64,000 bases of DNA from a virus, in IMG/VR virus record IMGVR_UViG_3300028840_007197, positions 1-64,000 of that record; one strand, given 5' to 3'. Positions 6,506-30,380 of this stretch are shown here, in pieces (within the stretch, counting starts at the first letter, position 1; each line of letters begins with the position of its first letter). The notes under the pieces are model-generated. The model worked only from the letters and a program-made list of their open reading frames with translations. It was not told the origin of the DNA and made no database searches. Position numbers and translations under genes: made by a program.

Positions 6506-7824
6506 ACCCTCATGAGATGATCCTCGAAAGAGGAGTAAAGAAGCCTATAAGGGCCTTTATGAATGAGGCCTTATATGAGGCTTCTGAAGAGGAAATGTGG
6601 CGTCAGGCTGCCTGGGCCACAACCATACCCTCTGTCGAGTCCGTCGTCATAACTCCTGATGCCCATGCAGGAGCTGGGGTACCAATCGGTCTAGTGGTTG
6701 CTACCAAAGACTATGTCGCCCCTTGTGCAGCAGGGTACGATATATCCTGCGGCATGCTTTCTATGCGTACAAGCCTCATTGCTGAGAACATAAAGGATAA
6801 AATCATCAGGCGTTCCTGGATGCAGGAAGTGGAAAGCCGAGTGGCCTGCGGTTTAGGGGGTCATCGTGTAGACGGTCAGATCAGAATCAATGGTAATCTC
6901 TTTGAGGAGATACTTCAAAATGGTATACTGGCTCTTGATGCCCCCCAGAATATTCGAGGTCGCTTCGAACGAACACATCATATAGTGAAGAGATATGTTC
7001 GATTTAAGAAAGCGGCAGACCGTGGAATGCCCGAGCTGGCCAGTCTGGGGTCTGGAAACCATTTCCTTGAACTCCAACAGGACCAGAAAGGAACCGTATG
7101 GATTATGATCCACACGGGGTCTCGTGGATATGGGCACCAGGTAGCAACCGAATTCTTCAACAGAGGCTTTGAGTGGTGGAACCAAAGTCACCCCAACGAG
7201 ATACTCGGAAAAGGTCAGAAGGAACTCGTTTCCTTTCCAGTGGATTCTGAGATCGGTCAGGACTATCTCAATGCCATGAATCAGGCTGCTAACTACGCCA
7301 TAGTGAACAGATACCTCATCGCTAAAGCAGTAATAGAGGCCACGGAGAAGGTATTTAAGAGCACCCCGGAGATACTCTATGAAATAAGCCACAACCTCGT
7401 TCAATACGAGGGTGGCCTCTGGGTACATAGAAAGGGTGCCACAAGGGCCCTACCGGCCGGTCATGAGCTTCTTAAGGGATCTATTTTTGAGACCACCGGT
7501 CACCCTGTTCTGATTCCAGGCAGCATGGGTACTTCATCTGCTATTCTTACTCCAAAGGATAGCGAAAAATCCCTGCACAGCGTTAACCATGGCTGTGGAA
7601 GGGTAATGTCTCGCGGTCGGGCAAAACGGACTTTTGCCCAGGATGTCCTGAATAAAGAGATGGACGACATGGATATCCTCTATAACAGCAGGAATGTTCC
7701 TATTGATGAGTCCTTGCACTGTTATAAGGATATCGATGAGGTCCTCTCTACCGTTGAGGGAGCAGAACTTGCGATTACGGATATAAGGCTCTATCCAAGA
7801 GCCGTTATCAAGGGGGAGAGTTGA
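6475..7824 (+). CDS. rtcB: RtcB family RNA 3'-phosphate/5'-OH ligase
   Basis: PDAHAG, GYDISCG, SLGSGNHFLE, HTGSRGYG, SHN, HRKGAT, IPGSMG, HGCGRVMSR and YKDIDEV motifs; GTG 6475 is the likely start (track gives 6442). Confidence 0.95.
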   Translation: MSFKYQVQRLNPHEMILERGVKKPIRAFMNEALYEASEEEMWRQAAWATTIPSVESVVITPDAHAGAGVPIGLVVATKDYVAPCAAGYDISCGMLSMRTSLIAENIKDKIIRRSWMQEVESRVACGLGGHRVDGQIRINGNLFEEILQNGILALDAPQNIRGRFERTHHIVKRYVRFKKAADRGMPELASLGSGNHFLELQQDQKGTVWIMIHTGSRGYGHQVATEFFNRGFEWWNQSHPNEILGKGQKELVSFPVDSEIGQDYLNAMNQAANYAIVNRYLIAKAVIEATEKVFKSTPEILYEISHNLVQYEGGLWVHRKGATRALPAGHELLKGSIFETTGHPVLIPGSMGTSSAILTPKDSEKSLHSVNHGCGRVMSRGRAKRTFAQDVLNKEMDDMDILYNSRNVPIDESLHCYKDIDEVLSTVEGAELAITDIRLYPRAVIKGES

Positions 7825-8091
7825 TTGATATGTCTTCTGTGTTCCAGGGAATCAGCATTCAAGGAACACTTTGAAAAGCATCATCTGACTCCCAGATGTA
7901 AAAAGGGGAAGAGAACTATCGATGTCTGCATAGATTGCGGTAACCAGATACACAAACTTTTCACGATTAAAGAACTATGTGCCCTTAATACTTTGGATCT
8001 CTTATTGAATCATCCTAGGGTGAAAAAATGGTCCTTATGGGTTAAAAATAGACCCATAGGCATATGTATGAAGTCCAAAAAGAAACGCTAG
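7825..8091 (+). CDS. Small HNH-like endonuclease
   Basis: CLLCSR...EKHHLTPR...CIDCGNQIH. Confidence 0.7.
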   Translation: MICLLCSRESAFKEHFEKHHLTPRCKKGKRTIDVCIDCGNQIHKLFTIKELCALNTLDLLLNHPRVKKWSLWVKNRPIGICMKSKKKR

Positions 8092-8100
8092 GGGAGAGGG

Positions 8101-8802
8101 ATGCTACCTCTTAAGGGAAGAGACATCATAGTTACGTCTGGGGGGACCCGAGAGTATATCGATGATGTCCGGGTAATGACCAACATCAGTACGGGTAAAC
8201 TCGGGGCCAACATAGCACAGTCTCTTCATGACCTGGGTGCTACGGTACATTATATCCACGGAGTGGGGGCTAAGATACCGAATATTGAGGGTATTCATCT
8301 TTATCAGGTTTCATCAGCCAATGACCTCTTAAACTCACTCAGGGGGGTCATCAATTCGTGTCGTAAATGGGGCAGCCCCGTTTTCAGCGTGATACATGCT
8401 ATGGCAGTATCGGATTTTTCGTTCAAGAGGGACAGTGCCGTCAAATGCAAATCCGATAGTGCTGAGGATTTTATCGAGTACATGCGTCGCACCATCACGA
8501 AAAACCCGAAGATAATCTCCTCCATCAAATCGTTGGAACCCAGTACAGTCCTCATAGGTTTCAAGTTTGAGGTGGGGGCTGATATATCTACTCTAGCAGA
8601 CCTTGCTCATAAATCTATTGAAAAGAACCATTGTGACCTCGTGGTAACCAACGATAAAGTAGAAATGGTCAAAAAGGGAGAACACATAGCCCATCTCTTT
8701 TTTTCCGACCATATGCACAACCTTGGATTCGTTGATTTCACGGTAAGTGGCAAAGATAGAATCGCGGACCACATTGCTGCAACTCTAGCTATGCTGAAAT
8801 GA
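8101..8802 (+). CDS. coaB: Phosphopantothenate-cysteine ligase (CoaB / DFP C-terminal domain)
   Basis: VTSGGTREYIDDVRVMTNISTGKLG, IHAMAVSDF, LIGFKFE and CDLVVTND motifs. Confidence 0.9.
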   Translation: MLPLKGRDIIVTSGGTREYIDDVRVMTNISTGKLGANIAQSLHDLGATVHYIHGVGAKIPNIEGIHLYQVSSANDLLNSLRGVINSCRKWGSPVFSVIHAMAVSDFSFKRDSAVKCKSDSAEDFIEYMRRTITKNPKIISSIKSLEPSTVLIGFKFEVGADISTLADLAHKSIEKNHCDLVVTNDKVEMVKKGEHIAHLFFSDHMHNLGFVDFTVSGKDRIADHIAATLAMLK

Positions 8803-20372: not shown

Positions 20373-21368
20373 CTAATCGTAGATAAAGTGCTCAGTCGGA
20401 CCGTTATATTTTATATCATCCCCTTCTACTGAGAAATATTTGAATACATCAGGATATCTCTCTTTGAAAATTTTCAAGTCTCTCACCATCGCCGGTCTAA
20501 TCTCCCAGTGAGCGGCCGGGTCAGTCCTTTTCCTATATATCCAAATGCGCTCTTCAAGATTCGTGCTCATTACTACCTGAGAAACTATCCCAATAGGGAG
20601 GAACTGTCTGGCATCCTCCCTTCTCCACTTATTGTTTTTTATAAGGTCACTATAGAACTTCTGATAAGTTTCCATCATCTTTAAGGGTGTAATGCCGCTT
20701 TCTTCACTCTCCACGTCTCGATGTGGAGGAAGAACAACAACTAATTCTGACTCATCGACATACCGGGTCGATTCCTGACTATATACTGCAACCCGGTGAC
20801 GAACAAACTCATGTGTAAAACCCCTGCTGAAGCCACTATAACGGACGGTATGAGCTATGTGAACAGCTTTATCCTTCACCCCCAGAAGCTGATCCTCCCG
20901 AGATATCGGTACGATTTCAGAATTGAACATGGATATTTTAGGTTGTGGGCCTGATCTGAAAAAAGCAGGACAGAACTTTTCGAGGTCATCCCGAATCTCC
21001 GGATCGAGCTTGTTGGCAACGTATAGTTTTCTCCATGTCTCAAGATTTGCAGAGATAATAAGAGAGTTGTCATTAAAAGTCAAAAACATGAACTTCAAAT
21101 AAGGCCAGTATATTTTCATCAGAAGAATAAGGTCGCTATCCCTGAAGGGGTAAATGTTATAGCCTCTCCACCCGTGTTCGAGTACAGAAAAGTGACCCCT
21201 TTTCAGTATGCGCTCACAAAACCCTTGAGCAGTCTCGGGGGTAATAGGTCCTTTCTCCGACTGATAGCAGGTTCTCCCGGCCTTCTCAAGGACCATCTGG
21301 GCGAATTCATTAGTCTCCGGTGAGGGCCATGTAGCAAGAACATCAATAGAAGAAGCAGATAGTCTCAT
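20373..21368 (-). CDS. thyX: FAD-dependent thymidylate synthase
   Basis: AGRTCY.S, GH.SVLEH, THEFVRHR...YSQESTRYV, EDARQFLP, AHWEIR. Confidence 0.93.
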   Translation of the reverse strand: MRLSASSIDVLATWPSPETNEFAQMVLEKAGRTCYQSEKGPITPETAQGFCERILKRGHFSVLEHGWRGYNIYPFRDSDLILLMKIYWPYLKFMFLTFNDNSLIISANLETWRKLYVANKLDPEIRDDLEKFCPAFFRSGPQPKISMFNSEIVPISREDQLLGVKDKAVHIAHTVRYSGFSRGFTHEFVRHRVAVYSQESTRYVDESELVVVLPPHRDVESEESGITPLKMMETYQKFYSDLIKNNKWRREDARQFLPIGIVSQVVMSTNLEERIWIYRKRTDPAAHWEIRPAMVRDLKIFKERYPDVFKYFSVEGDDIKYNGPTEHFIYD

Positions 21369-21735: not shown

Positions 21736-21897
21736 TCAAATTAAAGGTTCGGGAGGCCAGAGCTCATCCAAGGCCTCATTTATTTCATCCAGGGGCCACT
21801 TCCTTTTCTTAAGAATCTTTCTCATTTTCGTCTTTTCAAGAGGTTCTTTAATCTTTTTCACCTGTTTTTTTACCGCTTTCTTTCTCGGCATATGCAT
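21736..21897 (-). CDS. Small basic protein (53 aa, not in the ORF track)
   Basis: MHMPRKKAVKKQVKKIKEP...WPLDEINEALDELWPP; TAATG overlap with the GH5 stop. Confidence 0.5.
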   Translation of the reverse strand: MHMPRKKAVKKQVKKIKEPLEKTKMRKILKKRKWPLDEINEALDELWPPEPLI

Positions 21898-23249
21898 TAA
21901 TCCTTCCATGTAATAGTTATTGTTTGAGTGCTGTCATTCTCATTCACATGTTCATAAAGGGTCCTGATGCCAGTAAGTCTAGACCAGTTAGACCCTCTCC
22001 ACCAGAACTTTGGATGGCCATTTACCGATATCTGCACTGAATCCAATCTCTCCGGTATGAATATCACTGTTGGAGCCTTCAAGTTCAGGGGCTTATAGGT
22101 AAGGTTAAAGACATTATCCCGAATACTATAGAGGGGGTCCTTACCGGCAATACGTTGCGGATATACCCTTACAAGTTTATTGACTACTGGTGTCTCTTCT
22201 CCACCATTTCCTATAAGACCATAATTATCATTATAGGATATGTAATCATAAGACCAATAAGTCCAACCCGCACAGAACTCATCGGTGATGTCCAGAAAGT
22301 CAGTTATATATGACATATAACCATCGACTTTAGACGATATCCCGAACTCGCCAAATATAAGAGGACACCTAAACTGTTGGGCCTCATGCACTTTGATGAG
22401 TACCCCCGCTTTTAATATTTGAGTATTAATCTCTGTATAAGATGTATTCAAAGAACGAAGCGGGTCATAATAGTGGGGGCTATAGACGGCATTTATAGGT
22501 TTAAATCTAAGATGTGTAGGAAGACCGGTGCTCGTTTCAATACGAGGCTCAAAGAACATTTTTGTCTTGTATCTATTTGAGACCATGTCCCTGACATCTT
22601 CGTAGAAAGGACTCAGATAATCTCTCTCAAAGTTTAAAAGCATTCCAGAATAGGGCTCATTGATTATATCTATTCCGATCACGTTTTTAAGGGTATCAAC
22701 ATGCCCGAGGACATACAAAAGAGCATCGATATAGGACCTTTGCAGTTCCTCACTACTCCAGAAGTACCGAAATGAGTTAATAACAGCCGGTTCCAGGTAA
22801 TTAAGGTGCCAGGGTTCTCTTTTATTGAAAGCTACTCCACAGTCATTTACAGACCATCTTGGGAATCCGTTTCCACCGAATTTTTTAGAATAGAGGTCCT
22901 GGTGGAAATCCACGACCACATCCACGCCAATCTGCTGGAGATACTTTATTCTCCCAACAATCCTCTTCATATAATATTCGTTATAAACGCCCTTATTTGG
23001 CTCTAGGGCCTCCCAGAAGACCAGGAAGCGAACCAGGTTGAACCCCCAGTCATTCAGGCGTCTGAGCTCCTCCTTAGACTGCCAGGGCATATAATCCATA
23101 CTGCTTTTTTGAAAATTAGAGATGTTCACGCCATGATAGATTACTATTCGGCCATCAGAATCACGAATATACTGAATCGATTCTTTTTTAGGCGAGATAT
23201 GAATGCAGGAAAGAGAAAGAAGAAAAACAGCTATTAGTACCGAACGCAT
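21897..23249 (-). CDS. Glycoside hydrolase family 5, endoglycoceramidase-like, with lipoprotein-type signal
   Basis: HGVN, GFNLVRF.V.WEALEP, DFHQD, INEP (acid/base), SPHYY, GEFG (nucleophile), WTYW, RVYPQRIAG; N-terminus MRSVLIAVFLLSLSC. Confidence 0.88.
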   Translation of the reverse strand: MRSVLIAVFLLSLSCIHISPKKESIQYIRDSDGRIVIYHGVNISNFQKSSMDYMPWQSKEELRRLNDWGFNLVRFLVFWEALEPNKGVYNEYYMKRIVGRIKYLQQIGVDVVVDFHQDLYSKKFGGNGFPRWSVNDCGVAFNKREPWHLNYLEPAVINSFRYFWSSEELQRSYIDALLYVLGHVDTLKNVIGIDIINEPYSGMLLNFERDYLSPFYEDVRDMVSNRYKTKMFFEPRIETSTGLPTHLRFKPINAVYSPHYYDPLRSLNTSYTEINTQILKAGVLIKVHEAQQFRCPLIFGEFGISSKVDGYMSYITDFLDITDEFCAGWTYWSYDYISYNDNYGLIGNGGEETPVVNKLVRVYPQRIAGKDPLYSIRDNVFNLTYKPLNLKAPTVIFIPERLDSVQISVNGHPKFWWRGSNWSRLTGIRTLYEHVNENDSTQTITITWKD

Positions 23250-23310: not shown

Positions 23311-23967
23311 TTATTTCTCAGGGACATAGGATTCTACATGGTCCTCTATAATCTTCTTAGCGCAGAAGCCACATATGGCCCTTTTCCCATATTCATCAAG
23401 GTTTGGCCTTTTAATACGGCAAACTTCACAGGTATTTACTCTTTTATCTATTTCGATTATTCTCGGAAGGAAGCTCTTGAGGAAGAGTATTTCTTCCCCT
23501 ATTTTAACCTTGTTCTTATATGATCCGTCGATAGTCTTTATAAGGGCATAGTCATCAGACCCGTCATAGCATTGTGGAGTTAGGGTCCAGCTTTCACCTA
23601 TTTCCCTGTGAACAGCTTCTGCAAGACGTTCCGAATTCAAAGTAACATCTAAATTAACGCTGATAGGATTATCGTGATAAAAATAGGTATGGATACTGAT
23701 AGAGTCATACTCTGATATTTTGAAATGGTAACCAAAATGAGAAGCGCCCTCACCTAATAACTCATCCACAAAGGAATCAAAATCAACCAGCCAGCAATGC
23801 TTATCATCGATCCAGCAATTGCAACGGTCCTTTATACAGATACTATCGTTTTTAGGGCACTTCTCCGTATGGGGAAAATACCGCTTAAAAATTTCTCTTT
23901 TTGGCATAATTTTAAAAAAGGGGTGACCGTTAAGACTGAAAACATCCAAAATTATCCGGGTAGTCAT
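23311..23967 (-). CDS. Hypothetical protein with C-terminal CxxC...CxxC
   Basis: 218-aa ORF. Confidence 0.6.
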   Translation of the reverse strand: MTTRIILDVFSLNGHPFFKIMPKREIFKRYFPHTEKCPKNDSICIKDRCNCWIDDKHCWLVDFDSFVDELLGEGASHFGYHFKISEYDSISIHTYFYHDNPISVNLDVTLNSERLAEAVHREIGESWTLTPQCYDGSDDYALIKTIDGSYKNKVKIGEEILFLKSFLPRIIEIDKRVNTCEVCRIKRPNLDEYGKRAICGFCAKKIIEDHVESYVPEK

Positions 23968-24078
23968 TTTCTTCGATTGTTGAGAGGCATTCCGTCATTC
24001 TCTCCTTCAAAACCTTCAGCTCACCTCCCATGCGGGATACCTTCTTCATCGCCGCTGCAATTTTCATCGAAGCCCCTT

Positions 24079-24528
24079 TCACTGAGACGCTGCTTTTTTC
24101 TTACGCAGTGTTATCAATCCGCCACCGGCTAAAAGTGTGACAAGAGCTATCAAGAGCTCAAGAGTCTTGGTAATAACGTTCATGGTTTGGGAATGAGACT
24201 CAGAATTAACCTGAAGATTATCCAGTATGAGAGAGACCTTTGCCAGGTCTTTTTCCAGGGATATCAGCTTCTCATCTATCTGTCTAATGTCCTGATAATG
24301 GTCCCGGACGGTTATGTATGTCCCCGTATGATTCGATTGGGGCGTAATGGGCTCGATTTCTTCTATTGAAGGAGCCTGATATATATCTTGAAGAGGAGCT
24401 TGCTGATATACGAACCCTTTCACGCCTTTATTTCTCAAGTCATAGCTCTTATCGAGGATCTTATCTAAGTCAGCTACTATGCAGAATGCGGGTACGAAAG
24501 AGATGAGGATAAACACAAAAAATTTCAT
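24079..24528 (-). CDS. Exported/membrane protein with coiled coil and C-terminal TM segment
   Basis: Signal-like N-terminus; LLIALVTLLAGGGLITL followed by RKKK. Confidence 0.65.
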   Translation of the reverse strand: MKFFVFILISFVPAFCIVADLDKILDKSYDLRNKGVKGFVYQQAPLQDIYQAPSIEEIEPITPQSNHTGTYITVRDHYQDIRQIDEKLISLEKDLAKVSLILDNLQVNSESHSQTMNVITKTLELLIALVTLLAGGGLITLRKKKAASQ

Positions 24529-24548
24529 ATTCTACCTACCTCTAAAAA

Positions 24549-24624
24549 TGGCTGGGGTGTGAGGGTTCGAACCTCAAACCATTCGGTCCAGAGCCGAATG
24601 CTCTACCAATTGAGCTACACCCCA
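24549..24624 (-). tRNA. tRNA-Gln(CTG)
   Basis: TGGGGTG acceptor, anticodon arm TTCGG-CT CTG GA-CCGAA, TTCGAAC T-loop, encoded CCA. Confidence 0.95.
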
Positions 24625-24633
24625 ATATAAAAA

Positions 24634-24914
24634 GGGTGGTCGACCGGAGTCGAACCGGCAAGGCATGATTAGGTCTCCTTATTATCGGCACAGGACTTCC
24701 TGCCGCTGTTTACAAACCCTCCTGGACCGTTACCGGATTCCAGGCAGCGTATCAGTGTCTTCCGCAAGCCGTAGAGGCCACTCCACAATCGCTACCCGCC
24801 CGCTTCCCTTTGTTTCGTTCCACAGACTTCCACGACCACGGGGTTCATGCCGGGTGATAAGCCCTCTCCCAATCCTGTTTGTCGGGCGCTCTCGCCAATT
24901 GAGCTACGACCACC
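24634..24914 (-). ncRNA. tRNA-His-like scaffold with ~205-nt structured expansion replacing the anticodon arm
   Basis: G-1, acceptor GTGGTCG/CGACCAC, C73, D-arm GCTC/GAGC and T-arm GCCGG-TTCGACT-CCGGT are all intact; 227 nt lie between G26 and the T-stem. Confidence 0.75.
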
Positions 24915-24951
24915 ATAATACATGATATCAGTATTTCAAAGAACATTAAAG

Positions 24952-25024
24952 TTGGGGTATGTGGGCTTGAACCACAAACACGCGGCTTCAAAGGCCGTTG
25001 CTCTGCCCATTGAGCTATACCCCA
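24952..25024 (-). tRNA. tRNA-Gln(TTG)
   Basis: TGGGGTA/TACCCCA acceptor, ACGGC-CT TTG AA-GCCGC anticodon arm, TTCAAGC T-loop; CCA not encoded. Confidence 0.9.
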
Positions 25025-25090
25025 GTATATTTCATGCTTACTAAAAAGGCCCCTTTTACTACCATGAACAAATATTCAAAAGATTCAATA

Positions 25091-25225
25091 CTATTGAACC
25101 TCTTTTGTACGCTCTATATCATCAGAACTCACTAAGAGGGGAATCTGTTTATCATCCTGCCCTCTTGATAGCCTCGGGAAGAAGAAATTACCCCATGGGA
25201 CTTGCTCATAATTTAATGTTGTCAT
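25091..25225 (-). CDS. Possible 44-aa ORF inside the tRNA operon
   Basis: MTTLNYEQVPWGNFFFPRLSRGQDDKQIPLLVSSDDIERTKEVQ fills most of the spacer; weak SD. Confidence 0.3.
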   Translation of the reverse strand: MTTLNYEQVPWGNFFFPRLSRGQDDKQIPLLVSSDDIERTKEVQ

Positions 25226-25237
25226 AACTCTTATCCA

Positions 25238-25315
25238 TGGTCGGAGTGACCGGATTTGAACCGATGACTTCCACGTCCCGAACGTGGCGCTCTAGCCAGA
25301 CTGAGCTACACTCCG
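25238..25315 (-). tRNA. tRNA-Pro(CGG)
   Basis: CGGAGTG/CACTCCG acceptor, CCACG-TT CGG GA-CGTGG anticodon arm, TTCAAAT T-loop, ACCA. Confidence 0.95.
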
Positions 25316-25325
25316 TCAACAAAAA

Positions 25326-25404
25326 TGGTCGGGGCGATAGGATTTGAACCTACGACCCTCTGGTCCCAAACCAGATGCGCTAAACCAGACTGCGCTACGC
25401 CCCG
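25326..25404 (-). tRNA. tRNA-Pro(TGG)
   Basis: CGGGGCG/CGCCCCG acceptor, TCTGG-TT TGG GA-CCAGA anticodon arm, TTCAAAT T-loop, ACCA. Confidence 0.95.
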
Positions 25405-25411
25405 ATAAAAC

Positions 25412-25511
25412 TGGTCGGAGTGGGGGGGATTCCCAAAGCCCCATTCCGGTGCCCTAGCCAAGATTAATTCAATCCCCACGTTCGTGTGGAAGGAATCCTG
25501 GCCCACATCCG
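25412..25511 (-). ncRNA. Remodelled tRNA-Pro(GGG)-derived RNA (pseudo-tRNA or tRNA mimic)
   Basis: 5' CGGA(T)GTG pairs with 3' CACTCCG-ACCA; retains TGGCTAGGGC-A-CCGGA-AT GGG GC; has an extended hairpin in the D-arm and no canonical T-loop. Confidence 0.6.
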
Positions 25512-25521
25512 ATATAATCAT

Positions 25522-25551
25522 AAAAAAAGCCCCCGATTTTCACCGGGGGCT
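25522..25551 (-). terminator. Intrinsic terminator (attenuator hairpin) just upstream of the tRNA operon
   Basis: AGCCCCCGGT-GAAA-ATCGGGGGCT with a 7-T tail. Confidence 0.92.
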
Positions 25552-25579
25552 CGTGCTTTCATTCTCAGTAATAGCTCCG

Positions 25580-25645
25580 CTATACGCACGTCCCCCGTGT
25601 GTTATATCCTGGCTGCGGTTGGGGCTGTCGAATAGTGAGCTTCAT
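25580..25645 (-). CDS. Gln/Pro-rich leader peptide MKLTIRQPQPQPGYNTRGTCV
   Basis: ATG 8 nt after the -10 box; codons 7-12 are CAG CCC CAA CCG CAG CCA; the 3' end overlaps the antiterminator strand. Confidence 0.8.
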   Translation of the reverse strand: MKLTIRQPQPQPGYNTRGTCV

Positions 25646-25652
25646 ACTGTTA

Positions 25653-25681
25653 AATATATGCTAAAAAAGGCCGAGAGTCAA
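25653..25681 (-). promoter_or_regulatory. Sigma70-type promoter of the leader/tRNA operon
   Basis: TTGACT (25676-25681)-17 nt-TATATT (25653-25658). Confidence 0.85.
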
Positions 25682-25690
25682 GAACTTTTT

Positions 25691-26062
25691 TCATTCGATT
25701 ACAAGGAGCGCCTTCAAGCCTCTCGGAACGGGTACTCTATAGGCAATAACCCAAACAGTCTTTTCTGGATAATCGCCTATCGTATAGATACTTTCATATG
25801 AGTTGGCGATAGACATTATTCTGGCTTTCTCATATGACCAGACAATGATAGGGCAGCTTCTATCCTTACTAAGGCGAATAGCTGCCCCATCCACGAGGGC
25901 CTCTCTAATCCTCTTAGGCCTGAATATTGCGTTTTCAGCAACACAATATTTCATGTACTCGTGAACTATAATGATATTCCTAGTGGGGGGAAAGACATAA
26001 GCCTTCCTCCCACCGGAGGTCTCATCCTCCTGTGCTATCTTGTACCGACTCATGAACCCCAA
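25691..26062 (-). CDS. Hypothetical protein
   Basis: ~120-aa ORF overlapping the end of the vWA gene. Confidence 0.55.
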   Translation of the reverse strand: MGFMSRYKIAQEDETSGGRKAYVFPPTRNIIIVHEYMKYCVAENAIFRPKRIREALVDGAAIRLSKDRSCPIIVWSYEKARIMSIANSYESIYTIGDYPEKTVWVIAYRVPVPRGLKALLVIE

Positions 26063-27401
26063 ACGATCGCATCATACTCTCTTGAGCACTGGAATTATAG
26101 GACAAGTTCATACCACAGACAGATGATGCCCGAGACTTTGCCATGGTATAGCCATATGAACCAGCAAGTTTAGCGCCGGAAGTATAATATACTGCTGCAT
26201 TGCCACTGTTTTCTATCATGGTCTGGAAACTACCCTTAAGTGCCGTCGAGTTCTCAAACCAGGCGTTATTTTCTGCAAGGAGGAGACCGGCGGTATAGAC
26301 TTCACGGGCATCATCATACTGCCCTTTATCCGCCAGCTTTTTGGCATCTTTGTGGATCTTCTGGGCCTCGATAAGCAGCAGTTGAGCCTTCACGTCTTTG
26401 TTCGCCTCAGTACTAGCATCATCTGGTTTCACGTACCTGATTTTTGCCTTTGCTTCAAGAACAGACCGCTCCTTGGTCTCGACATCAAGATAATCGACTC
26501 TTATGTCACAGACTTTAGTGGCCCTAGCTGTAACAGCCTGAGATGCGCTTGGCAGTTTAAGCTTGAAGAGAACATGCTTACTCTCACCATAGAACACGTC
26601 TTCAAGAGTAAATAGTACCTTACCGTCCGTTATACCCCGATAACCGGCCGACTCCTCATAGGAAATTTTACTGAGAAAGTCCACCAGCTCAACATTCCCT
26701 GAGGGGGTGACTTCCACTTTAAGGTCTTGAACGGCCATGGAAAGTAGACCACCAAGCTCCATAGCGAAGGCTCTCTTGCAATCATCCTCATTCTGAATAT
26801 AGAAATGATTTCCCCGGCCCCTGTTAGACATTGAAAGAAGGAGCTCAGGGTCGTAATCATGCCCAAACCCGAACGTGGAGAGACTCACATCGGGCCTTAA
26901 CTGGCTGACAATGTTAACCAGGTCCTCACGACCTGTCAGACCAGAAGTAGGAAGGCCGTCAGTAAGGAAGACGATTCTGACTATTTTTTTCTTATCAGAG
27001 GATGCAGCGCGTTCAAGTGCCCATTCTAGGGCCTCACTCATATTGGTCATGCTATGGGTGTAAGTATTATTTATAGAACTCTTAGCGTTAGCCTTCCCCG
27101 ATGAATCCATTACGGTTACCGGTATGATTTCCCAGCAGTTATCGCTAAAACCGATAACAGTCATGGTATCGTTCTCAGTAAGATTATCAATGAGCTTGTT
27201 GACCGTATCCTTCATGGAATCAACTTTTTTGCCAGCCATAGAACCCGAATAGTCAAGAGCAAGGACCATATGGAGGGGCGTTCGCTTGGAATCGGCCTTC
27301 TCGGGGACGTGAAAAACGACATCCATATGGACTTCGTTTTCCTTGTTGAAGGCAACCTTTTCGTGATCGAAGACAGCACGGACATTGAGCTTGGAGGACA
27401 T
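26022..27401 (-). CDS. vWA-domain protein (YfbK / Ca-activated chloride channel homolog-like)
   Basis: LVLALDYSGSM-type MIDAS, TNMSEAL, IVFLTDG, STFGFGHDYD..LL..MS..G.G. Confidence 0.85.
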   Translation of the reverse strand: MSSKLNVRAVFDHEKVAFNKENEVHMDVVFHVPEKADSKRTPLHMVLALDYSGSMAGKKVDSMKDTVNKLIDNLTENDTMTVIGFSDNCWEIIPVTVMDSSGKANAKSSINNTYTHSMTNMSEALEWALERAASSDKKKIVRIVFLTDGLPTSGLTGREDLVNIVSQLRPDVSLSTFGFGHDYDPELLLSMSNRGRGNHFYIQNEDDCKRAFAMELGGLLSMAVQDLKVEVTPSGNVELVDFLSKISYEESAGYRGITDGKVLFTLEDVFYGESKHVLFKLKLPSASQAVTARATKVCDIRVDYLDVETKERSVLEAKAKIRYVKPDDASTEANKDVKAQLLLIEAQKIHKDAKKLADKGQYDDAREVYTAGLLLAENNAWFENSTALKGSFQTMIENSGNAAVYYTSGAKLAGSYGYTMAKSRASSVCGMNLSYNSSAQESMMRSFGVHESVQDSTGG

Positions 27402-27554
27402 TTGAAGCTCCTAGGGTCTGGCTCGATTTCTTATCAGGGCTGGGAATGCTGGCGGGTAAACCCACAACCTGAGAAAGAAACTTTTGCCTGGATTGATTGG
27501 CCAGCTGTCGCTGCCCGGCACCCCAGTGGCTCGGGCACAAGACATATTATTCTG

Positions 27555-28778: not shown

Positions 28779-30380
28779 TCATATCTGCTCATCAACGCCG
28801 CCCTGAACGTCATTTATCAGCTTATCAATCTGGTCCCGTATACGGCTCACATCAGAACTTTCGGTCTTACTTGCGAAACGAGCTCTAAGACCATCCTGCT
28901 TATCATCATCCCAACCTACCCACTTCAACAGGTAATTAAGCTGCTCAGCCATGGTGGTGACGAGATTAGTCTTATTCCTCAATACCCGAAGTACTGTTTC
29001 AGTATCGAGCTCTTTCCCGGCATGGAACGCGTCATACATGGACTCTTTCAGTACTTGTTCTATTTCCCTTCCAGAAAGGTCCTCGCTGGAAGAAGCCAAC
29101 TGATCCAGGAAGAACTTTGAGGTGTCTTTTTTGAGCTTTCTAAGATGGATGGAGAAAATATCCTTTCGTTCCTGAAATTGAGGAAGACCAACAAAGAAGG
29201 TCTCGTCAAACCTTGATATGAGCTCTGGCGGTAGATTCTCGATATTATTAGACGTTGCAACCGTAAACACCGAATGGTTACAGTCCTGCAACCAGATAAG
29301 GAATGAACCTATCACACGTGCTGTAACTCCACCATCACTGTATGTGCTACTATGGATACCGGCAAAGCCCTTTTCAATCTCATCGATCATAAGAACACAG
29401 GGGGAAATGTTCTCAACTATTTTAAGCATTCTTCGTAGATTGGCCTCAGACTCTCCTACTCGTATTGAAAAGAGCCTTCCGAGGTCCAGCTGAATTACCG
29501 GGAGCCCCCATTGATTACCAATCGCTTTACATATCATGGATTTTCCACAGCCCGAAAGCCCCACGAGAAGCAGACCCTTAAGCAGTGGCAGACCAAAGGC
29601 CCTGCCCTCAACGGTCCATCCTCCGGCACTCTTCTCTATCCATGCCTTAAGCTGTGGCATACCCCCAATATCATTAAAAGTTAGGTCTGTTTCGAGCAGG
29701 GTCAAGAGGTCGGTTTTGGCTATAGAAGCCTTCTTAAAATCTCTGATGAAACCAAGTTCTATCCCCTTATACATGAAAAAAGATTGAAGATAGGCCTGCT
29801 CCACCTCAAAACGGGTCAGACCTTTAAGATTGTTCACCACCTCTTCACTGGGAGCCTTTCCAATCTTACTCAATTCCAGTTTGGACGATATATGGTCACT
29901 ATGTTCTTTAAGCTCATTTTCATCGGGAAGGTCAAAGAATACGATCTCTGACAATCTATCGAGGTCTGGAGGTATACACAGAGTCTGAGAAATAAAAACC
30001 ATATTACAGGTGAAGTTCTCATCAAGTTGATATCTCGATAAAATATCTTTAATCTTACGTATATTCTGTGGGTCTCTTATATAGTTTTGGCAGTCTAAGA
30101 AAACATACGTCTTAAAGGTATGTTGCCTCTTTGAATCAAAGGTCTGTTTTAATATGGAATCGAGAACCTGTATAGTCGTCTGAGCAGCGCCTTTAGAGGC
30201 TGAAGAGAAGGATTCATCTAGAAGGGTCGTTAATTCATACACACCTGAAAAGGTGGTGCTATAGACATGATAAGAGCCCTTTTTATACTTATCTCTCAGA
30301 TATAATAGAACTTCAAGGTCACTCTCAGCTACAACAAAAATCAGGGGCCTATTAGCCCCTAGGCACTGATGGAGTTTCAT
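28779..30380 (-). CDS. AAA+ ATPase, Ycf46/SpoVK-like
   Basis: DIGG...LK.W, GLLLVGLSGCGKS, VLMIDEIEKGF, ATSN...LPPEL..RFDE; degenerate N-terminal AAA domain. Confidence 0.88.
   Translation of the reverse strand: MKLHQCLGANRPLIFVVAESDLEVLLYLRDKYKKGSYHVYSTTFSGVYELTTLLDESFSSASKGAAQTTIQVLDSILKQTFDSKRQHTFKTYVFLDCQNYIRDPQNIRKIKDILSRYQLDENFTCNMVFISQTLCIPPDLDRLSEIVFFDLPDENELKEHSDHISSKLELSKIGKAPSEEVVNNLKGLTRFEVEQAYLQSFFMYKGIELGFIRDFKKASIAKTDLLTLLETDLTFNDIGGMPQLKAWIEKSAGGWTVEGRAFGLPLLKGLLLVGLSGCGKSMICKAIGNQWGLPVIQLDLGRLFSIRVGESEANLRRMLKIVENISPCVLMIDEIEKGFAGIHSSTYSDGGVTARVIGSFLIWLQDCNHSVFTVATSNNIENLPPELISRFDETFFVGLPQFQERKDIFSIHLRKLKKDTSKFFLDQLASSSEDLSGREIEQVLKESMYDAFHAGKELDTETVLRVLRNKTNLVTTMAEQLNYLLKWVGWDDDKQDGLRARFASKTESSDVSRIRDQIDKLINDVQGGVDEQI

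Follow-up and report, generated by a model that had tools for sequence, protein, structure and literature searches.

The window analysed here (positions 1-64,000 of the 94.9-kb IMG/VR virus record IMGVR_UViG_3300028840_007197) carries on its minus strand a cluster of proline (Pro) and glutamine (Gln) transfer RNA (tRNA) genes preceded by a promoter, a 21-codon open reading frame (ORF) and a hairpin with a U tract; our subject is this upstream element, which is likely to be a ribosome-mediated transcription attenuator of the tRNA genes. CheckV completeness of the record is 20%, from which the whole genome would be hundreds of kb, and the source is a giant uncultured phage. The order on the minus strand is a vWA-domain gene, an ORF of about 120 amino acids, the promoter, the leader ORF, the terminator, a degenerate tRNA-like element and the tRNA cluster; the latter consists of Pro(UGG), Pro(CGG), a 44-codon ORF, Gln(UUG), an insert-bearing tRNA-like element and Gln(CUG) (Table 1). 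tRNA calling was performed with ARAGORN and Infernal, and the four Pro/Gln genes were found to be the only tRNAs on the 94.9-kb contig. The promoter, leader ORF, control codons, terminator and tRNAs claimed in an earlier, sequence-only reading of this DNA were all present on the minus strand at the positions given. The same reading had the tRNA cluster begin 10 nucleotides (nt) past the terminator; an element does lie there, but it is not an intact tRNA, the first of which begins at 25404.

Table 1. Features of the leader and tRNA cluster region, in window positions
Feature	Coordinates	Strand	Remarks
vWA-domain gene	26022-27401	minus	
ORF of ~120 amino acids between vWA gene and promoter	25691-26062	minus	
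Sigma-70-type promoter TTGACT-17-TATATT	25653-25681	minus	10/12 consensus matches
Leader ORF MKLTIRQPQPQPGYNTRGTCV, 21 codons + TAG	25580-25645	minus	homologous short ORFs in three other lineages
Region 1, 5′ strand of anti-antiterminator	25621-25641	minus	overlaps first control codons; pairs with region 2
Control codons 7-12, CAG CCC CAA CCG CAG CCA	25610-25627	minus	pattern CCNCRRCCNCRRCCN kept in four lineages
Region 2, CGGGGGACGUGC within codons 17-20	25586-25597	minus	alternative partners: region 1 or region 3
Region 3, GCACGAGCCCCCGG	25543-25556	minus	antiterminator 3′ strand and terminator 5′ arm
Intrinsic terminator: 11-pair stem, 4-nt loop, seven U	25522-25552	minus	stem 25552-25527, T tract 25528-25522
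Degenerate tRNA-like element	25412-25511	minus	starts 10 nt after T tract; comparison by eye
tRNA-Pro(UGG)	25326-25404	minus	67 bits; first intact tRNA
tRNA-Pro(CGG)	25238-25315	minus	63.6 bits
44-codon ORF between tRNA-Pro(CGG) and tRNA-Gln(UUG)	25091-25225	minus	
tRNA-Gln(UUG)	24951-25024	minus	62.8 bits
tRNA-like element with acceptor, D and T arms	24635-24913	minus	~210-235 nt replacing or following anticodon arm
tRNA-Gln(CUG)	24549-24624	minus	69.1 bits

The promoter and leader ORF were examined for their standing within the locus and the contig. The promoter tops all promoter-like sites in the 4 kb scanned (23500-27500). The leader ATG, at 25645, is positioned 7 nt past the -10 element and lacks a Shine-Dalgarno sequence; from this spacing, the leader mRNA is probably leaderless. 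The QPQPQP run encoded by the control codons was the sole six-codon segment composed entirely of Gln and Pro among the 189,776 such segments of the 94.9-kb contig (all frames, both strands), in which Gln and Pro together account for 7.2% of the codons of long ORFs. Thus, the run exceeds chance, and it is located in the gap of about 170 nt ahead of the contig's only tRNAs. A Pro/Gln-rich protein that could account for the tRNAs was not found, with a maximum Pro plus Gln content of 12.6% compared with a median of 7.2%.

The terminator was the only terminator-like site detected on the minus strand in the same scanned region (23500-27500). As had been claimed from the sequence, the 3′ end of the leader was found to be complementary to the 5′ arm of this terminator, with CGGGGG-A-CGUGC (25597-25586) pairing to GCACG-AG-CCCCCG (25556-25544) as an antiterminator; this complementarity of regions 2 and 3 was equalled by just 2 of 2,000 dinucleotide shuffles of the ORF. 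The claimed helix of the control codons with region 2 was also present, and the energies of the 1:2, 2:3 and 3:4 helices in the window were -19.4, -23.0 and -21.3 kcal/mol, respectively. Rfam analysis of 23500-27000 at E ≤ 1 returned only the tRNAs and three weak chance matches, with no T-box and no leader family (trp, his, thr, leu, mgtL) detected.

Related loci were collected to determine which parts of this arrangement are conserved. Homologues of the vWA neighbour were found in metagenomes at 40-89% identity, and an alignment of 26 of these was used to fetch loci from IMG/VR and the JGI metagenomes. The module was identified in three further metagenomic phage lineages, L008 (= L016), L012 (= L013 = L014) and L023 (= L024), in which the vWA protein is 43-51% identical to that of the window and the leader ORFs are MNTRRNPQPQPGVI, MTMRRQPQPRPIIVVRRGPDE and MTMFRQPRPQPTQPRGPGV, respectively. 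In the L008 lineage, a TTGAAA-17-TATACT promoter precedes MNTRRN-PQPQP-GVI (CCC CAA CCG CAG CCA) and the tRNAs Pro(GGG), Pro(CGG), Gln(UUG) and Pro(UGG). In the L012 lineage, TTGAAA-17-TATATT precedes MTMRR-QPQPRP-IIVVRRGPDE (CGG CAA CCG CAA CCA CGA CCU ... CGG CGA GGG CCG) and Pro(CGG), Pro(UGG), Gln(UUG), Pro(GGG) and arginine (Arg)(CCG). In the L023 lineage, for which part of the contig was covered, TTGACA-17-TATACT precedes MTMFR-QPRPQP-TQPRGPGV, Pro(CGG), Pro(UGG) and the start of Gln(UUG). Each of these modules heads a Pro/Gln(/Arg) tRNA cluster downstream of the vWA gene. Common to the four lineages are: (i) a TTGAnn-17-TATAYT promoter, the best scoring in its region in every case (tied in L014); (ii) an ATG 6-7 nt past the -10 element without a Shine-Dalgarno sequence; (iii) an in-frame run of CCN/CAR/CGN codons, whose distance from the ATG differs by exactly one codon (a frame-preserving 3-nt indel); and (iv) an antiterminator and a terminator, with the terminators detected by the terminator scan in L008 and L023 and by folding in L012. 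In L008 the T tract leads straight into the tRNA-Pro(GGG) gene, and 3.4 kb of the plus strand gave no promoter-like site other than the leader promoter; thus, transcription has no way into this cluster except through the terminator. The 120.8-kb contig of this lineage (G001) has no tRNAs beyond its Pro/Gln cluster.

The competing helices were likewise retained in the relatives. Energies across the four lineages ranged from -9 to -19 (1:2), -18 to -25 (2:3) and -17 to -22.5 (3:4) kcal/mol, and the three helices are mutually exclusive in each lineage. The 1:2 helix was -14.7 kcal/mol in L008 and -18.3 kcal/mol in L023, and weak (-9.2 kcal/mol) in L012. When the antiterminator was judged against the strict 5′ arm of the terminator, shuffles did as well in 2 (L008), 15 (L012) and 3 (L023) of 1,000 trials. 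Six core antiterminator pairs were 100% paired in the four lineages (alignment A2) compared with 29-61% when the partner was slid. In addition, columns 95/149/162 of this alignment (in regions 2, 3 and 4, respectively) were found to shift together, being G/C/G in the window and A/U/A in L008 and L023, so that the covariation check suggested by the sequence-only reading yielded one concerted change; region 2 lies outside the terminator yet tracks region 3. On four sequences, this covariation may be taken as qualitative support. A nearer relative, recovered from Logan contigs with a vWA protein 89% identical to that of the window (P0002, on a 2,827-nt contig), has 8 differences in the 176 nt from codon 6 to past the terminator (25630-25455), while the adjacent upstream ORF has 53 in 378; the 45 nt with the promoter and codons 1-5 (25631-25675) are replaced in this relative by 73 other letters.

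The effect of a translating ribosome was modelled on truncated transcripts ending ahead of region 4 (window, L008 and L023), with a mask that began 15 nt upstream of the A-site codon's first base and reached to 11 nt beyond it. The antiterminator formed as long as the A site had not passed codon 13 (window and L008) or codon 11 (L023), and was lost once the masked ribosome passed this boundary or was positioned at the stop codon. Control codons are codons 7-12 in the window, 7-11 in L008 and 5-11 in L023; thus, the control run ends just at the boundary. By the geometry of the mask, a ribosome stalled on the control codons also covers region 1. These folds fit a trp-type logic, in which a stall on the control codons would free the antiterminator and a ribosome at the stop codon would destroy it.

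The codons of the leaders were then compared with the anticodons of the clusters. Three or four CCN codons of different kinds occur in each leader, and the clusters have up to three Pro isoacceptor genes (GGG, CGG and UGG). The only cluster seen with tRNA-Arg(CCG), that of L012/L014, has a leader with CGG twice, and the only cluster seen with Gln(CUG), that of the window, has a leader with two CAG codons. Of the earlier claims on this point, that the anticodons of the four intact tRNAs are all matched by leader codons was borne out, while the match of CCC to Pro(GGG) stays conjectural given the degenerate state of that gene; likewise, upstream ORFs were kept in three lineages as anticipated, but the correspondence of their codons to the anticodon sets is imperfect. 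The degenerate gene in question is the element at 25412-25511, which has a bulged acceptor-like stem and a D region with an insert of about 35 nt, lacks a clear T or anticodon arm, and received no tRNA call from ARAGORN or Infernal. This element occupies the position of the intact tRNA-Pro(GGG) of L008 and is probably a decaying Pro(GGG) gene; hence its likeness to the L008 gene makes the previous label of Pro(GGG)-derived plausible, though no intact gene is present.

We consider it likely that the element is a trp-type ribosome-mediated transcription attenuator that is codon matched to, and gates, the phage tRNA genes. This reading is based on the sequence elements, their statistics, conservation, covariation and fold geometry, from which we infer the translation of the ORF, its leaderless start, the kinetic competition of helices, the stall-driven read-through and the physiological trigger. 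In the proposed mechanism, the host sigma-70 RNA polymerase would probably start at or next to the ATG to generate a leaderless mRNA, and a ribosome would translate the 21-codon leader. With fast decoding of Gln and Pro codons, the ribosome would reach codons 14-22 and the stop and cover region 2, the terminator would form, and transcription would end before the cluster. When aminoacyl-tRNA for CAG, CAA, CCG, CCA or CCC is scarce, the ribosome would instead stall on codons 7-12, covering region 1 and leaving region 2 free to pair with region 3 once made; the resulting antiterminator would block the terminator, and polymerase would then continue into the four tRNA genes, Pro(UGG), Pro(CGG), Gln(UUG) and Gln(CUG), and beyond. 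The new phage tRNAs would speed leader translation and thereby shut the switch; as the products of the cluster are tRNAs for the leader codons, this would constitute negative feedback on the decoding capacity for those codons. On transcripts that read through from upstream genes, the ORF would have neither a Shine-Dalgarno sequence nor a 5′-terminal AUG and would be poorly translated, such that the RNA would fold into the 1:2 and 3:4 helices and terminate; thus, the hairpin may also insulate the cluster. The trigger would be depletion or cleavage of host tRNAs, or high demand; those named in the sequence-only reading, an anticodon nuclease and loss of charging or of m1G37, are likewise conjectural. 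Lineage conservation, the in-frame run, the kept helices and the mask folds together support the earlier proposal of an attenuator with control codons read by the tRNAs that it gates.

Several observations weigh against this reading. First, while the truncated transcripts switched on and off with the ribosome masks as the sequence-only reading anticipated, the full-length transcript at equilibrium always folded the terminator, even with the masks; antitermination would therefore have to be kinetic, and classical attenuators similarly have an equilibrium terminator in the full transcript. Second, the homologous instances amount to only four that are distinct, and the covariation score of the antiterminator was reached by 128 of 500 shuffles. 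Third, the leaderless start is supported by promoter spacing alone, and a TATGAT with a poor -35 element is located just past the terminator in the window; this TATGAT is not conserved in the other three lineages. Fourth, in L012 and L023 the terminator is separated from the first tRNA by protein ORFs, and no terminator was predicted between the window cluster and the next protein genes (23500-24549); thus, the controlled unit does not consist of tRNAs only. Finally, the codon match has exceptions: (i) the window retains CCC although its Pro(GGG)-like gene is degenerate; (ii) the L008 leader has one CAG without a Gln(CUG) gene; (iii) CGA codons occur without a matching tRNA gene in the DNA covered; and (iv) the leaders of the window and L023 contain CGG as well, with no tRNA-Arg(CCG) detected in either. 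By wobble rules, a UGG anticodon with modified U34 can read CCC and a UUG anticodon can read CAG.

That L012, L023 and the window have protein ORFs within or behind the controlled unit also bears on an alternative in which the element is a real leader-peptide attenuator that senses the supply of glutamate-family amino acids (Gln, Pro and Arg, or nitrogen status) through charging rather than tRNA abundance; the operon under its control would be a mixed one, with small proteins and a GH5 enzyme besides the tRNAs, and the feedback would not be aimed at the latter. Across the four lineages, the amino acids specified by the control codons are Gln, Pro and Arg, all derived from glutamate, and a stalled ribosome is blind to the difference between a missing and an uncharged tRNA. 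However, tRNAs for the leader codons lie behind the switch in every lineage and are the sole tRNAs on the 95- and 121-kb contigs, and surplus tRNA is of no help when the amino acid itself is missing. Furthermore, the Pro codons are spread across isoacceptors and CGG occurs twice where tRNA-Arg(CCG) is encoded; thus, isoacceptor sensing fits better than amino-acid sensing, and we regard this alternative as unlikely.

Slightly less probable still is that the ORF is untranslated and the hairpin ends the vWA transcript as an ordinary, partly leaky terminator, an insulator or an RNA-processing structure, with the promoter constitutive and the codon run and alternative pairing kept for an RNA-level reason or by descent. 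Consistent with this, the ORF has no Shine-Dalgarno sequence or mapped start, equilibrium folding settles on the terminator, no terminator was found between the upstream ORF and the promoter, and the covariation counts on four sequences are non-significant. Such an account would leave aside that the ATG position, the frame (with its 3-nt indel), the CCN-CRR periodicity and the placement of the stop relative to region 2 are all kept at about 45-50% protein identity, that region 2 follows region 3 from outside the terminator, and that the run is unique in the contig and the locus has no Rfam match. Very improbable is a role for the product of the short ORF itself, as a functional micropeptide or as an arrest peptide whose Pro-rich nascent chain would stall the ribosome regardless of tRNA supply: Pro is slow in peptide-bond formation and an X-P-X-P core is conserved, but the codon run alone is conserved while the N and C termini and the length (14-21 amino acids) vary, the C-terminal residues are dictated by the RNA sequence of region 2, and the control codon runs are free of Pro-Pro pairs, the motif known to cause stalling.

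Beyond the candidate attenuator, the cluster includes a second tRNA-like element (24635-24913), which has a 7-bp acceptor stem and no encoded CCA. No Rfam family, group I introns and tmRNA included, matched it at E ≤ 1, and its fold was no better than that of shuffles (z = -0.33). In the near relative it has 13 differences in about 290 nt and is conserved as well as the tRNAs, with 21 in 137 nt for the next ORF. The element may represent a tRNA with an intron or a non-coding RNA of tRNA-like shape. ARAGORN with introns allowed resolved neither of the two tRNA-like elements, and BLASTN of both against all loci gathered gave no match. Between tRNA-Pro(CGG) and tRNA-Gln(UUG) (25025-25237, minus strand), the 283-nt stretch holding the 44-codon ORF is replaced in the near relative by 144 unrelated letters; thus, the spacers between the tRNAs appear to turn over fast while the tRNAs and the attenuator stay. 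Just downstream of the cluster is a gene for a GH5 (cellulase-family) glycoside hydrolase (21897-23249, minus strand), and a coding stretch that by eye resembles a related glycoside hydrolase lies between tRNA-Pro(CGG) and tRNA-Pro(UGG) in L023 (~7300-8670); based on these two positions, the glycoside hydrolase may be co-transcribed with the tRNAs. A ThyX-type thymidylate synthase (20373-21368) and an AAA+ ATPase (28779-30380) are encoded on the minus strand, which they share with the tRNA module.

Searches were also performed beyond this family. An exact 18-mer scan of IMG/VR gave six loci, none with tRNAs, which were set aside as chance matches. The pattern of promoter, ATG and CCNCRRCCNCRRCCN recovered the L008 contig from IMG/VR together with one chance match inside a long ORF; in GTDB genomes the same pattern gave seven matches, of which an in-frame filter retained one (L056), which is in coding-looking DNA with no nearby tRNA and was rejected. 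A relaxed pattern without the -35 element gave 21 loci, none with Pro or Gln tRNAs in the DNA covered (one had distant glycine and methionine tRNAs), and no terminator was present in any of the five inspected. BLASTN against cultured phages matched tRNA genes only, and no Gln/Pro leader was found at the tRNA-Pro of Sinorhizobium phage Phosso, Pseudomonas phage RVTF4 or Xanthomonas phage XacN1.

Two further arrangements were encountered at other tRNA arrays. In L043 (7385-7640, plus strand), downstream of a distant vWA relative of 31% identity, TTGACA-17-TAAAAT is followed by a 36-codon ORF with a Shine-Dalgarno sequence, MGPLPVRRLLKSSSQVSDSMLQSQRHIKLEEPKPDS; immediately after its stop are CCACCCC, GGGGUGG and CCACCCC with a U tract, and then 17 tRNA genes. 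This is possibly an antiterminator/terminator pair, and the composition of the ORF is too mixed for a codon match to be judged. The second is in G002, a complete 193-kb phage with terminal repeats and 31 tRNA matches, 27 of which fall in the fetched stretch, in six blocks. Here (L078, G002:C1:20800-30200, ORF 769-825) MIKIRSHSWRNTHTRHTG, with three histidine (His) codons, one tryptophan (Trp) codon and one asparagine (Asn) codon, precedes an Asn-Asn-Trp-His block; a classical U-tract terminator is not evident there. The L043 and G002 parallels are suggestive but unproven.

When compared with known systems, the element has, as judged from its sequence, every hallmark of a leader-peptide attenuator. 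Like the enterobacterial attenuators (trpL, hisL, pheL and leuL, and the multivalent thrL and ilvL), it combines a promoter-proximal ORF, a run of regulatory codons, the 1:2/2:3/3:4 helices and an intrinsic terminator, and its stop codon is placed such that a terminating ribosome would block region 2; as in the thr and ilv leaders, several amino acids would be sensed by one leader. It differs in that the control codons alternate and so sample isoacceptors instead of repeating one codon, that the mRNA is apparently leaderless, and that the genes behind the switch are phage tRNAs rather than genes for amino-acid biosynthesis or a synthetase, so that feedback would act on decoding capacity itself. 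The pheM leader of pheST provides a case of leader-peptide attenuation of an aminoacyl-tRNA synthetase operon; there too a leader peptide controls a translation component serving the same codons, but the component is a bacterial synthetase as opposed to viral tRNAs. In the Salmonella mgtL/mgtP leaders, the supply of charged tRNA-Pro is relayed to downstream transcription by the Pro codons of a short ORF; these leaders control Mg2+ transport and virulence genes, with an Mg2+ riboswitch and Rho, and have no link to tRNA genes. The phage element would share this Pro-codon sensing but not the non-tRNA targets, and the window has no sequence or Rfam match to these leaders. T-box riboswitches also tie translation-related genes to their cognate tRNA, whose state decides between terminator and antiterminator; however, they bind uncharged tRNA directly without a ribosome or ORF, whereas the phage element has a conserved, translated-looking ORF.

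To our knowledge, no described leader-peptide attenuator controls tRNA genes. The full-text literature, in which older subscription work is thinly covered, gave no account of leader-peptide control of tRNA genes in phages or elsewhere. Phage tRNAs have been presented as replacements for depleted or cleaved host tRNAs (eLife 2023, PMC10264068; Nature 2024, PMC11464382); the titles and abstracts of these papers address tRNA function, not the control of synthesis, and mention no codon-sensing switch.

We lean toward the broader view that giant phages run an inducible tRNA-supply circuit, in which a leaderless mini-ORF gauges the decoding of the codons of its own block and turns this block on only once the host is short of Gln, Pro or Arg tRNAs, with the phage tRNAs turning it off again; anticodon nucleases, host shut-off or late-infection demand would be the sources of the shortage. 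If this holds, leader-peptide attenuation of tRNA genes would be without precedent, and a textbook mechanism known from amino-acid operons and one synthetase operon would also apply to viruses and to genes for tRNAs. In addition, the conserved leaderless layout would offer a compact part for sensors of tRNA availability. It has been debated for decades whether phage tRNAs compensate for codon usage or replace tRNAs lost to host defences, and a switch that reads the codons served by its own genes would imply that the tRNAs are made on demand, when decoding limits. The question would thereby become testable, as the leader predicts which tRNAs are scarce in infection and the module is small enough for a reporter, and the leader would provide a direct sequence-level readout of the host tRNAs that a phage expects to lose.

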